64,000 nt of DNA from a virus (taxonomy: Duplodnaviria > Caudoviricetes). The notes beneath the pieces are model-generated. The model saw nothing but the letters and a program-made list of their open reading frames with translations, had not been told where the DNA came from and searched no databases. A program made the translations under genes and the position numbers. Shown in pieces: positions 21,501 through 42,167 of this stretch. Numbering within the stretch: the stretch's first letter is position 1; every line of letters starts with the position of its first letter. The stretch spans positions 31,565 to 95,564 of the IMG/VR virus record IMGVR_UViG_3300029305_002203. The stretch is one strand, 5' to 3'.

Positions 21501-23171
21501 AATATTTTGTAAAGTAGAAACAGATATTTTACCACTTTCAGAAACTTCGCCTTTTACAGTTTTAATCATGGAATGAGTAGACTCTAATTCAGACAACATT
21601 TCATCTAAACTAATATTGCTACTCTCTGTAGTCAGACCATCAAACAATTCTAAGATTTCATCACTGGCACCAGCATCTTGCAAAGAAGATTTTAAGCTTT
21701 TTAACTTGTCATCAATTAAAGTCTGAATGGCATATGACAAATTATCGGTTTCACTGGTAAGAGTAGGAAAACTTTGCAATAAATCTAATAGGTCGGAAGA
21801 AGATAAGTTATTATTCCTAATCTTATCTAAAGCTTCTGATAAACTATTTAAATCAGATTGATAATTATCTATTCCTTCTTGGTTTGTAGCATCAAACGAA
21901 AATTTTGGGACAGAAGTATTAACTGCTTCTTGTGATGTTGCAATACTATTTAAATATTGTAAATATACAGATGCGGGAGTTTGACCTTCTTCTAATATTA
22001 AATTAGCATCTTCAAGAGCAGTAATTAAATTATCATATTGAGCAATATCACTTTCAGTCAAAGTTCCATTTGCAAACTTCTGTTGAATTTCTTCCTTAGT
22101 TTTATCTAAAGATGTGTCATTTAAAGCAAAATCTATTTGAAGTGTATTCCATTCACCAGAGCCATTATTTAGCTGATATATTTTTTTCTTCCAAGACTCT
22201 ATATAATCCCACATTTGCTGATTAAGTGGATTGTCAAATGTACCGTCTTCATTTCTAAGTAACATTAATGTCTCTTGTTGCTCTAAAAATCCTTGAAGAA
22301 TAGAAGCAGAACGTTTTCCTAATTCTTCTTGAAGAATTAATTGGCTTTCTTGTAACGAAGTGACAAGTTTATCATTTCCCTCTGTTATTGCGGCATCAAT
22401 TTGATTATTAACGCTTTCTAAATTAAATAATAGCCCTTGGTCGTCTATACGAGATGCCTCTTTCTCATTAATTTGTGCTGCCCATCCATGTAGCACATTG
22501 CCTTCAGCATTATATTCTGTATCAAAATCTGAACCCCATTCATCATTAAATGTTTCTCTGTTTTGTACTGATAGTTTTTTGGCATCTTCTTTAGCAAGGT
22601 CTTCCTTGGTTTTCTTTTGTTCTTCTAATAATTTATTTTGCAGAATTAATTTATTAAGTTCATCATCTTCAACAAGAGTGATTGTACCTTCACTTAATTT
22701 ATTCCTTAATTCTAATATTCTTTTTTCATTATCTATTATTGCATTTCCAAGAGATTCAACTTCTTGGATAGTATTTTCATATTCATTTCTTAATTCTGAA
22801 ATTTTCTCTTTTTGTTCTTCAATGGTTGGATTCCATTTTTTATACACTTTAACTGCAAATCCTACTGCCACAGCGATACCAAGAATCCATGTTGCAGGAT
22901 TAGTAAGTATTGCGGCTGCCATAGCTTTCGCATTTGCTAATAGAGCAGTAGTATATGCTTGCATTGAGAATGTAGCCAACCCGGTTGCAGAGGCAGAAGC
23001 AGTTTTTGCAACAATAGCTCCCGTCTCTGTTTGGGTTAATTTTTTATTTGCTAATACACTTGCTTTTTGACTTTCGGTTAAATTTTTAGTTAATCTGTCT
23101 AATTCATCCGTATCAGTCGCAGTGCTTCTTAATGCCTCTCCAAAAGCACTCATACCTTTAAAATCAAATAT
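18510..23171 (-). CDS. tape measure protein C-terminal exon B (distal 3' exon, 1553 aa)
   Basis: no RBS; the called TTG start ends in the omega-G of UGUUUG|AUAUUU; TM segment NPATWILGIAVAV, long coiled coil; C-terminus paralogous to exon A. Confidence 0.8.
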   Translation of the reverse strand: MFDFKGMSAFGEALRSTATDTDELDRLTKNLTESQKASVLANKKLTQTETGAIVAKTASASATGLATFSMQAYTTALLANAKAMAAAILTNPATWILGIAVAVGFAVKVYKKWNPTIEEQKEKISELRNEYENTIQEVESLGNAIIDNEKRILELRNKLSEGTITLVEDDELNKLILQNKLLEEQKKTKEDLAKEDAKKLSVQNRETFNDEWGSDFDTEYNAEGNVLHGWAAQINEKEASRIDDQGLLFNLESVNNQIDAAITEGNDKLVTSLQESQLILQEELGKRSASILQGFLEQQETLMLLRNEDGTFDNPLNQQMWDYIESWKKKIYQLNNGSGEWNTLQIDFALNDTSLDKTKEEIQQKFANGTLTESDIAQYDNLITALEDANLILEEGQTPASVYLQYLNSIATSQEAVNTSVPKFSFDATNQEGIDNYQSDLNSLSEALDKIRNNNLSSSDLLDLLQSFPTLTSETDNLSYAIQTLIDDKLKSLKSSLQDAGASDEILELFDGLTTESSNISLDEMLSELESTHSMIKTVKGEVSESGKISVSTLQNIASQYPGLTATIDKYLEGKASEKDLLRDLQKEYEADLQNYKLYMAQKKGEDESFYDLVVDGLSEDLINKAKEYGIELGNYSNYLEAKLAMDKEYARKKLIFESAQRKYESTVNDRTHYLNPSISAYDDMVQAEKELVEIEEIINGVNTSISTVVPDFRTDLPFGASGSDSGEEEKFSEDFDWFARSVENANRRIEELDNTLSNTEGFTERLAVLKQLKGANEDLVTATAEASEEYKSIWETESAKIDPKYIKLITGDRSQLTIENFDNEEEYNRVMKLVEIYDRWQDSITQNNDAVEKLKANEDEVNSTLLEQNELNLENHNLVDQESMTVAEKNKWLDEEKRIKGEILKLNLALATTEEERLKLQKAYDEYVEAEPDKKYENGREGRANKTSYYNSRIQDIQNDIDLEEARGGQGTAQQYLDMNALHEKNKEIYKADLKAAIAKRDGEKWGTAAYKEYNDQVQEAQDNINACTIAQIENNRAILLLPIKQYEDLNKELEEDLDYQTKLQSKIESAIGYANILVQDEIEALNERRQVLSDGYDEQIKAIQEQKDALTESNDERQREIDLENAKYNLEKAMRNKTQRIYRAGEGFVYEADQDAIRDAQQELDQQNYNNTIASFDKQIDTLNKNKEDDLLIIDNEIKTWEEYAKKLNAVSDSYERLISKRAFLELFKASGENSILQQDEGILTILETSLNNAKTEVDTIQEKIDANNTTMQQIREEAEAYLAKQLEIKAAQDAINKAIVENEEELEAIQNRTDETKELSDKWTEADANITSALEFVTSAHTSAKDSEATILDERQKKLEEFKNVAVSLYGQIASQVSKANSAFSSLETILTNAKETYKQILDYQAKAASAGTNGNKGNGTKGNTTSNKGGKNGATMHLYHSGGIVGKPTSKNKLPENFVALTEDNLKPNETLAKLLYGEVVLTNNQMGNMFSNLNKAYSSIAPINKRENSPMEITIGDINVYNPDNSDMIVDEIVKELPLKVIQKLHSK

Positions 23172-23217
23172 CAAACATTATTATAATACATAATATATTA
23201 GGGGTATATTATATATT
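23166..23217 (-). other. distal group I 3' splice-site element
   Basis: 13-bp hairpin with CCCCUAA loop, then UGUUUG(23172)|AUAUUU. Confidence 0.7.
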
Positions 23218-23239
23218 CAAATTCAACTTTTACGGATAA

Positions 23240-23782
23240 TTATTTGTTGTCAATAATAAAATTTTTAAATTCATTTTCATATAATGCATGGCATGTTCCA
23301 TTCCCATAACAAGCAAAATATTCACTAAACATTGCTTCCATATTTTCGTGGTCTGTGATAGTAATATGTACTTTACCTTGCTCATCTACATTTTGACTAA
23401 AGTAACGCATACCGCCCAAGATACGATCTCTTAAAACGGCACAGTCCCGACGCTTTCCATCCTCATCAATTTTGGTTAAACGTTCACTTTGTTCATCAAT
23501 TTTTTTATCAAGTTGAGTACAACGATCATTCATTATAGATACAAATTTTTCAATTCTTGTTGATAATTCTTCAATCGCTGCAGTGTTTTTATCAATTGTA
23601 GAAACTTCTTCCTCACGTCCTTTTCTTTTATTGTAAGCTTTGATAAATACTCCCCACAGCCATTTAATGAATTTTTCCAAACCAACCACAATTGCAACAA
23701 TTACAATTAGTGCGGATAATAAATCCAAAAAAGTATGTTCTGCAAAATATTCAATCATTTGTTCTAGCATTTTACAAATCAC
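23240..23782 (-). CDS. membrane-anchored coiled-coil protein of lysis cassette (holin/spanin-like)
   Basis: one N-terminal TM, coiled coil, LRDRIL..GNG motif; follows endolysin. Confidence 0.55.
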   Translation of the reverse strand: MICKMLEQMIEYFAEHTFLDLLSALIVIVAIVVGLEKFIKWLWGVFIKAYNKRKGREEEVSTIDKNTAAIEELSTRIEKFVSIMNDRCTQLDKKIDEQSERLTKIDEDGKRRDCAVLRDRILGGMRYFSQNVDEQGKVHITITDHENMEAMFSEYFACYGNGTCHALYENEFKNFIIDNK

Positions 23783-23847
23783 CCTTAGTCATATCTGACT
23801 CCTCCCTCTTTTGTTCTAGTCTTATAAATATTTATAAGAATTTTTAT

Positions 23848-41150: not shown

Positions 41151-41156
41151 TTTTAT

Positions 41157-41185
41157 TTGACAATATTTGACATTATTGATACAAT
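41157..41185 (+). promoter_or_regulatory. sigma-A promoter
   Basis: TTGACA-17-TACAAT with TG extension. Confidence 0.7.
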
Positions 41186-41301
41186 ATAATTAGGTGCTAT
41201 CCAAAGTGGTAGGCGGTTAGTCCTCTAATCGTGAGACTGGACTCATGTTTATCTTATAGATATCCTTTCGAGGAAATATTACGAAAGGAGGACACCCTTT
41301 T

Positions 41302-41379
41302 ATGGAACAATTGACTTTATTTTTATTTTTGTTAATTGTAGTTGCTACTATAGAACTAATTAAAAACATAAAAGAATAA
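41302..41379 (+). CDS. 25-aa hydrophobic type I toxin-like peptide
   Basis: MEQLTLFLFLLIVVATIELIKNIKE; GAAAGGAGG RBS; mRNA ends GTGCTATCC (41194) and GGATAGCAC (41466) are complementary. Confidence 0.65.
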   Translation: MEQLTLFLFLLIVVATIELIKNIKE

Positions 41380-42167
41380 TCGCCTCGGTCTGGACAACTA
41401 GGCGATTATTTCTTTAGAAATATATCAAATTGGATCTGGGCTAACCGCTTGCTTCACGGATAGCACTTTTACTTTTACAAGTAAGAATTCTTGTTAATAA
41501 ATATTAACACATTTTTCGTAATTCCGCAACACAACACCTAGTAAATTCAAAAACACGACCACAATATGTTGTATCTAAATGTCTATAAAATTTTCCTTTT
41601 ATTCAGTCTATCTTCCACATTCATGAAAGAGTGCGATAGAAACACTCTATAATTTACCGTCATGCCGGTTATCTTTTGTTAGGTTATTATAGATACAATT
41701 ATGAACTCTCTATAACTTTCATCTGTCTGTATATTATTTACTTTTGTAACGTGTCATCTATATCCTTACTTGCTGACACTGCAAGCCCTAACTGAATAGA
41801 AGAGTATGGATATAAATACTCTGTCATAGACATTTTTACACCGCTATTCTCAGTGCTGTTTAGACTATGCCTTAATTCGTCAGCGTTTCATCTATACGAA
41901 CTTCGCCCTGGTAGTCGTTGAGATTAGTTCTGTGAGAGAACTGTCATCTGCTCGTTGGTTCGAGCCATTGTAGTATTACGATTCTATTATGTCGCCACAA
42001 TAGAAGTGTCACAATGGGTTTACTTACTTTCAAGCATATCTGCGATTTAACTCTATGTATTTCATAAAGTGTTGCACAAAAACTCATGTATCCATGAGGG
42101 CTATGCTACCGATGGCATATTTTAATTATATTTTTACATAAAAAATAAGGCTCGACTTTTTGAGCCT

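Follow-up and report, generated by a model that had tools for sequence, protein, structure and literature searches.

The tape measure gene of a gut phage is split into one 5′ part and two alternative 3′ parts in the DNA analysed here, a window of 64 kb (the whole stretch, 64 000 nt) from the 95.6-kb IMG/VR phage record IMGVR_UViG_3300029305_002203. The split locus is read on the minus strand; unless stated otherwise, all features described below lie on that strand, positions are those of the window and motifs are written as RNA. The explanation that we regard as probable is that a group I intron interrupts the tape measure gene and has two acceptor modules, A and B, tethered to the ribozyme by pairings between hairpin loops and docking sequences (docks). 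The A contact is well supported by covariation. The B tether, to which co-conservation points, is less certain than the A tether.

Relatives and conservation of the layout

The window was compared with seven genomes that carry the acceptor-B hairpin: the IMG/VR genomes G001, G004 and G005, and the ENA assemblies E1 to E4, which were reached via homologues of exon B and of which E4 covers acceptor B only. The two-acceptor layout, with one tape-measure 5′ exon, a group I intron and two start-less 3′ exons, was found in seven genomes (the window, G001, G004, G005, E1, E2 and E3). In the six relatives other than E4, the second acceptor lies 17–26 kb from acceptor B. The exon-B halves of the relatives are 38–63 % identical to that of the window, and about 18 exon B homologues were found in public assemblies, five of which were read. 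Further scans of IMG/VR, with an exon B alignment and with P0020, gave no new genomes, and a pattern scan of metagenomes gave four matches, all GC-rich and unrelated. Deposited phages gave neither a DNA match nor a protein match.

The tape measure gene is split

A frame of 2694 codons (42126–50210) carries a PhageMin_Tail domain close to its C-terminal end, as identified with Pfam and PHROG, and aligns solely with positions 494–941 of a tape-measure profile of 2625 positions. From the Pfam and PHROG matches and from collinearity, the 5′ exon encoding the N-part of the tape measure protein was assigned to 42168–50210; its last codon is GGU. The 5′ splice site, between 42168 and 42167, was set by the P1 pairing described below. 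Two further frames encode the C-part. The 3′ exon A (36757–40263 in the frame 36757–40266, ~1167 codons) was assigned from its translation, its paralogy and its collinearity on L012, and the alternative 3′ exon B (18510–23171 in the frame 18510–23174, ~1552 codons) from its translation and its collinearity on L011.

Exons A and B are paralogous. Their frames open with identical residues, and both have transmembrane segments, a coiled coil and a related C-terminus. Exon A lacks both a start codon and a ribosome binding site, and so does exon B, where the Met at codon 8 is not conserved among relatives. Exon 1 followed by A or by B maps collinearly onto uninterrupted tape measure proteins of relatives (L012 and L011, respectively), and there is one PhageMin_Tail locus per genome in the four genomes searched, which include the 91 %-complete G001. 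Taken together, the single PhageMin_Tail locus, the collinear mapping and the two C-terminal-like frames indicate that the gene is split into one 5′ part and two alternative 3′ parts.

The reading frame is kept when 42168 is joined past G40264 (KGDG/IFKDIA) or past G23172 (KGDG/IFDFKG). The uninterrupted homologue L053 has GAG-IFDF at the expected junction of exon 1 and exon B, which is suggestive only of such a join; the sequence downstream of it is not significantly similar to exon B.

The intervening element is predicted to be a group I intron

The ribozyme extends from 42167 to about 41600 and is followed by cargo genes. Its internal guide sequence (42110–42122) was recognized by covariation of P1: the guide nucleotides 42116–42110 pair with the exon end 42174–42168, with a U·G wobble at the splice site, and P1 takes four covarying forms (AUGG/CCAU, GUGG/CCAC, AGGG/CCCU and ACGG/CCGU) among the window and G004, G001, G005 and E3. 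The adjoining AAAUAU (42122–42117) is complementary to AUAUUU, the first six bases of both 3′ exons, giving P10. In J7/9, AAAC (41858–41861) is the P9.0 partner of GUUU at both acceptors. The P10 and P9.0 complementarities are present in all relatives, with wobble variants; for P9.0, AAAC, GAAC or AGAC stands opposite GUUU. The terminal G of the intron is G40264 at acceptor A and G23172 at acceptor B.

In two prophage introns from metagenome-assembled genomes (MAGs), L046 (~6720–6790) and L047 (~5000–5075), the last exon base facing the guide A is C and not U, so that a C·A pair would stand in for the canonical U·G wobble.

RNAalifold applied to six sequences (the window and five relatives) returned P1, P2, P2.1, P3, P4–P6 and P8 in canonical order. 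The core of the window (P2, P2.1 and P3–P8; 41863–42098) was modelled manually by homology, fitted by hand to this consensus scheme. In this model P7 is formed by GACUA (41916–41912) with UAGUC (41867–41863), with the G-binding pair not confidently placed. We conclude that the intervening element is, on the support of its guide pairings, a group I intron with two acceptor modules, for which self-splicing is predicted.

The guide of G001 can be extended to 9 bp with exon B versus only 4 bp with exon A, a better fit that argues for B as a real ribozyme substrate. It also bears on a reading in which a cassette exchange between related phages left exon B and its hairpin behind as a relic without use, with only acceptor A being spliced and B silent or otherwise expressed. 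Acceptor A is indeed 17 kb closer to the ribozyme and transcribed first. A relic would nevertheless have to have kept a start-less exon of ~1552 codons intact, together with an intact paralogous tail-tip module behind it, and the acceptor-B hairpin and exon recur in eight genomes at the divergence given above, seven of them with the full layout. The non-conserved Met at codon 8 speaks against the relic as well, and we regard this reading as improbable.

Conserved loops on diverged acceptor hairpins

Each acceptor module would comprise an AU-rich hairpin with a specific loop, a short spacer, GUUU for P9.0, the terminal G and an exon starting with AUAUUU for P10; the modules span 40297–40264 (A) and 23217–23172 (B). 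Hairpin A (40273–40297) has a 10-nt stem with one C·A mismatch and the loop UCCAC (40287–40283), within the conserved motif UCCACA (40287–40282). It is followed by UAAA and then by GUUUG (40264–40268), a motif common to B and all relatives, with the 3′ splice site past G40264 in frame with exon 1. Hairpin B (23185–23217) has a stem of 13 bp, including one G·U, and the loop CCCCUAA (23204–23198); its GUUUG lies at 23172–23176, with the 3′ splice site past G23172, again in frame. These motifs and minimum free energy (MFE) folds confirm an earlier note on this DNA, which had placed a hairpin before each of the two 3′ splice sites. Within the window, the exact 11-mer starting with GUUUGAUAU occurs only at acceptors A and B.

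We read 15 acceptors in the eight genomes, and all but one (14/15) fold by MFE into a hairpin 0–8 nt (once 38 nt) 5′ of GUUUG. The stems are AU-rich and unrelated among genomes, whereas the loops are conserved. Loop A carries UCCACA in the window, G004, G005, E1 and E2. The B hairpins of the eight genomes have eight different stems with CCUAA in every loop: CCCCUAA in the window, G005 and G001, UCCCUAA in E3, and AUCCUAAC or a close form in G004, E1, E2, E4 and X7. The last is a sequencing run of which a DNA contig, compared with the window, has a variant B hairpin.

In G001 (L002, 12440–12490 and 11190–11215), an 8-bp hairpin closed by a GAAA loop sequesters GUUUG and the splice site of acceptor A. 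The L095 lineage has three hairpins 5′ of its acceptor, with other loops, for which we found no clear dock. A pattern search for a second acceptor in the L042, L044, L046 and L047 genomes found none on the L042 contig.

Loop A and dock A covary

At acceptor A, UUCCACAU (40288–40281) is the exact complement of AUGUGGAA (41620–41613); the 8-nt match takes in one 5′ and two 3′ stem nucleotides beyond the loop. This dock A (41613–41620), with the conserved core UGUGGA (41619–41614), lies in the P9 extension between a covarying hairpin (41648–41628) and GAUAG. It is kept in the window, G004, G005, E1 and E2 and is replaced in E3. There, the A loop is AAUCCGUAA, which carries AUCCGUA, and the dock at the homologous place reads UACGGAU instead of UGUGGAA, so that seven pairs can form. 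Relative to the window, three of these pairs are altered on both sides (A-U to U-A, U-A to C-G and G-C to A-U). By our own rough count, ~0.006 matches of 7 nt would be expected by chance within the homologous window of 25 nt. G005 adds one more compensated pair in the flank of the contact.

The earlier note had claimed that each acceptor loop is complementary to a site of its own in the P9 extension and had proposed covariation across homologues as a check. The complements are exact and lie at homologous positions in the relatives; the check is borne out for the A pair by the three double changes of E3, and the B pair, treated below, gave none.

Related loops also occur in two more distant MAG prophages (L042 and L047), which have another acceptor (GUAUG) preceded by one or two hairpins with UCCAC(A) loops and have GUGGAA in the P9 extension. 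In a loop–loop kissing complex both partners would be hairpin loops, as the acceptor side is here. Dock A lies in a linker inside a pseudoknot in the window and, as read by eye from the fold, apparently in a hairpin loop in L042, L046 and L047; dock B is a helix strand in the consensus fold described below.

We compared the loop–dock matches of the window alone with dinucleotide shuffles, taking either the 592-nt ribozyme or the whole intron as target. The 8-nt A match gave P=0.026 against the ribozyme and 0.07 against the whole intron. The caution of the earlier note, that the matches are short and could be due to chance, thus holds for the window alone and not across the relatives, with their conserved loops and homologous docks. 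This evidence also bears on the wider reading that the complementarities are coincidence in AT-rich sequence and the hairpins nothing more than common features of intergenic DNA, for example weak terminators or promoter-associated repeats. On its side are the shuffles in the window alone (P about 0.03–0.07 for A and 0.5–0.9 for B) and the counts of promoter-like sites around both acceptors, which are at chance level. Coincidence would leave the conservation of loops on fully diverged stems, the docks at homologous sites in seven genomes and the triple compensatory change in E3 to be accounted for. The hairpins moreover have AU-rich stems with an inconsistent U-tract, and a terminator scan found no terminator-like site near B. 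We consider coincidence, already disfavoured by these findings, highly improbable. Since promoter counts were at chance level and no terminator was found at B, these scans cannot separate splicing in cis from splicing in trans.

The P9 extension is a pseudoknotted domain

The P9 hairpin (41838–41856) has the loop GAAUAG (41849–41844), which pairs with CUAUUC (41799–41794). All six of these pairs are swapped in G005 and E3 (UUCUCA with UGAGAA), which argues that the pseudoknot is a true one. Additional pairings between loops and downstream sequences of the extension covary as well. Judged from these covariations, the P9 extension is a compact domain built on pseudoknots, which is entered at dock B and left near dock A.

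The earlier note had framed both docks with a single closing stem, UAUUCAGU (41798–41791) with ACUGAAUA (41607–41600). Although these 8-nt complements are present in the window, the pairing is kept only in E1 and is broken without compensation in G004, G005 and E2; its 5′ half (41799–41794) pairs with the P9 loop instead. We therefore rejected this stem.

Loop B and dock B are co-conserved, with a competing internal strand

At acceptor B, CCCUAA (23203–23198) is the exact complement of UUAGGG (41791–41786). This dock B is flanked on its 5′ side by the pseudoknot strand, which it adjoins, and on its 3′ side by a covarying hairpin (41785–41769); its UUAGG is invariant in all seven genomes in which the dock was read. 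Both types of B loop can form 6–8 contiguous pairs with the invariant GUUAGGG, in a shifted register. Cognate duplexes were calculated at −10.8 (A) and −9.4 (B) kcal/mol versus about −2.3 for the A/B cross pairs; the two loop–dock pairs are thus predicted to be orthogonal.

Dock B has a second partner. In the RNAalifold consensus of five homologues and in the MFE folds of G004 and G005, its GUUAGG pairs with an internal strand, CCUAAC (41678–41683; CCCUAAC in G005 and CUCUAAC in E3), whose sequence is also that of the type-2 B loops. The docking sequences that the earlier note had described as separate are both present, but dock B is not free in the consensus fold. The two duplexes are nearly isoenergetic (−8.8 kcal/mol with the internal strand versus −9.4 kcal/mol with the B loop). 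Since the internal strand that pairs with dock B matches the B loop in sequence, the B loop appears to imitate that strand and to compete with it. The loop may be a true address that acts by exchanging strands, or it may be left over from the duplication from which acceptor B arose.

These findings lead to the reading that competes most directly with two tethers, namely that only the A tether is a real RNA–RNA contact and dock B is a strand of an internal P9.x helix. The B hairpin would then have been kept as a protein site, as an element of RNA processing or stability, or as a leftover internal CCUAAC copy from a duplication, and P9.0, P10 and the terminal G would by themselves have to bring about any joining of exon B, unless this took place in trans in another way. 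Dock B is a helix strand in all five homologues of the consensus fold, which could by itself explain its conservation, and CCUAAC(A) is common to the B loop and the internal strand. The cores of loop and dock B never vary; they are co-conserved with zero compensatory changes. In the window alone, the 6-nt B match is not significant (P=0.49 against the ribozyme and 0.87 against the whole intron), that is, a chance match is expected. Other features fit a single tether less well. The same loop core stands on eight different stems directly before GUUUG, which points to selection on the loop. At least six pairs with the dock are retained in both loop types despite the register shift. Finally, the third G of dock B is conserved in the window, G004, E1 and E2, where the B loop can pair with it and the internal strand cannot. 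On balance, we think it rather unlikely that only the A tether is real, and retain the reading with two tethers.

In E2 (L089, 270–278), a single difference from the window, U for A, places another GUUAGG 23 nt 3′ of dock B. This second site has a 9-nt complement to the E2 B loop, and it may be due to chance or may provide a second docking register.

How the two acceptors may be addressed

P9.0, the terminal G and P10 do not differ between the acceptors and cannot locate a site at a distance of 1.9 or 19 kb, which is why the hairpin loops are proposed to act as tethers. Loop A (UCCACA) would pair with UGUGGA (41619–41614) and loop B (CCCUAA) with UUAGGG (41791–41786), both docks lying in the P9 extension beside P9.0. 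The tether would put GUUUG beside the active site, like the last P9.x hairpin of a compact intron, and the two loop–dock pairs would confer acceptor specificity. At dock B, the loop would have to displace or pre-empt the internal strand (41683–41678) and would reshape the P9 extension as it binds. By analogy with the sunY intron of phage T4, treated below, we infer that the loops recruit the remote exons to the ribozyme; we also infer that exon B is joined at some stage and that either tether is needed for splicing. The earlier note had proposed the same recruitment and had added that the pairings could set the A:B ratio; its interpretation is supported in part, for the intron with its two modules and for the loop–dock pairs. 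More tentatively, it is possible, though we would not call it probable, that the orthogonal addresses and the strand displacement by the B loop together form an RNA switch that makes A and B mutually exclusive, choosing the C-part of the tape measure protein and the tail-tip module.

Several observations, besides the invariance of loop and dock B, the lack of significance of the B match, the helix that holds dock B and the second site of E2, weigh against tethered acceptor choice. Splicing in cis to acceptor B would span 19 kb in competition with acceptor A, whose transcription precedes that of B by 17 kb. Acceptor A of G001 has no A-type (UCCACA) loop. In L042 and L047, the dock has changed from U to A with no compensation in the loops, and loop A of G005 also matches 9 nt in P2. 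The sequencing runs that contain the phage provided DNA contigs only, with no RNA run listed, and these show strain variation and no splice evidence. Lastly, the Rfam group I model RF00028 gave no match in the window or in four relatives, either at the gathering threshold or with E up to 10. The same model also misses L014, a compact, textbook-like relative, and is thus insensitive for this lineage; we did not take the miss as evidence against a group I intron.

Cargo of the intron and neighbouring genes

Between the ribozyme and hairpin A, the intron carries cargo (40298–41612) with two ORFs on the plus strand (40336–40884 and 40950–41135). Part of this region (41156–41558) is an indel: ~31 unrelated nt stand in its place in contigs of runs X4 and X7, and it is absent from G004. 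Inspected by eye, the sense strand of this ~400-nt segment shows a strong hairpin with a U-run behind it, near 41440–41380. The terminator scan flagged only the inner part of this site (41388–41403), on the plus strand. If active on the sense strand, the hairpin and U-run could stop transcripts just past the ribozyme. The scan also flagged as terminator-like the first 20 nt of the intron (42148–42167), a hairpin within the P1 loop with a U-run behind it; the relatives show covariation in the hairpin but no conservation of the U-run. In E3 (L096, 200–923), the intron cargo is a ToxN-family toxin gene behind three or so short direct repeats, which looks like a type III toxin–antitoxin (ToxIN-like) module within the tape-measure intron.

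Paralogous sets of tail-tip genes follow both 3′ exons (13897–18181 behind exon B and 28314–32271 behind exon A), with paralogue pairs 25–27 % identical (E-values 2e-22 and 2e-36). In E3 (L090, 18308–19409), an IS605-type OrfB/TnpB gene in two pieces lies inside the tail-tip module behind exon B. The 5′ exon of G004 (contig positions 88361–89701; L023, L024 and L027) is broken again by ~1.3 kb within the PhageMin_Tail domain, probably by another intron. Group I introns of several core types are found in many Clostridia MAG prophages (L037, L041, L043, L048, L050 and L057; near 6600–6800) at the same tape-measure codon, after K-N-x-G, which looks like a hot spot for intron insertion.

The motifs described here could also serve annotation. 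A hairpin with a UCCACA or CCUAA loop, then GUUUG and then AUAU would be a signature by which to recognize the start-less, orphan halves of tape measure genes, which gene finders miscall.

Comparison with known systems

Two tethered acceptors, if true, would explain how a ribozyme finds an acceptor kilobases away and how one intron serves two acceptors specifically. The interest would be high if exon B is really spliced, and the contact itself would be a variant of a known long-range intron contact. The loop code is short and modular and could guide the design of ribozymes engineered for trans-splicing or alternative splicing. In the literature, we found no group I intron with two alternative remote acceptors and no acceptor-specific loop codes.

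The closest likenesses are to the Clostridium tetani intron C.te.I1, treated last, and to the sunY (nrdD) group I intron of phage T4, in which, as Michel et al. reportedly described in 1992, the remote 3′ splice junction is tied to the core by a long-range pairing. In both systems the core is more than 1 kb of ORF-bearing sequence away from the 3′ splice site, nucleotides right before that site pair (in our phage, are predicted to pair) with a peripheral part of the ribozyme, and P9.0, P10 and the terminal G fix the exact site. For a pairing of this type, acceptor A offers the compensatory changes of E3 and acceptor B co-conservation only. Unlike sunY, the phage locus has two acceptors, each with a loop and a dock of its own and known here from sequence alone, and one of them is 19 kb away, behind a whole gene module.

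The proposed pairings also resemble the peripheral loop contacts of group I introns (P13, P14 and L9), in which a terminal loop and a peripheral element far from it form 5–7 Watson–Crick base pairs and which were found by covariation; Michel and Westhof are said to have described such loop–loop contacts in 1990. The loop–dock pairs are similarly short. P13, P14 and L9 stabilize one fold of one compact intron, whereas in the phage the acceptor is carried on the loop-bearing hairpin itself, of which there are two versions.

At the level of the gene, the locus recalls the invertible tail-fibre segments of phages Mu (G) and P1 (C), in which a constant 5′ part is joined to either of two 3′ parts to give two host ranges. 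There the choice is made by DNA inversion; here it is proposed to be made at the RNA level, and the intron would be the RNA-level equivalent of these segments, providing two tails from one phage genome.

More than one mRNA from one gene, as predicted for this phage, is also produced by phage group I introns through exon skipping, in Twort orf142 and the SIOphi polymerase gene (PMC11878797). In those genes an exon between two introns is skipped, whereas here one intron would pick between two 3′ exons.

The group II intron C.te.I1 of Clostridium tetani can use four alternative 3′ splice sites, and a copy of domains 5 and 6 (D5/6) stands before each of them (McNeil, Simon and Zimmerly 2014, PMC3919590). 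As proposed for our phage, one 5′ exon and one ribozyme body serve several start-less 3′ exons, each behind a copy of a 3′-terminal module, and the products are isoforms with different C-terminal parts, which for the phage are predicted. The differences are those between a group II intron with near-identical D5/6 copies within 5 kb, proven by reverse transcription PCR (PMC3919590), and a group I intron with minimal modules (hairpin and GUUUG) that have different loops and lie 17 kb apart. If the proposal is true, the phage intron would be the group I counterpart of C.te.I1, the only proven case of bacterial alternative self-splicing.

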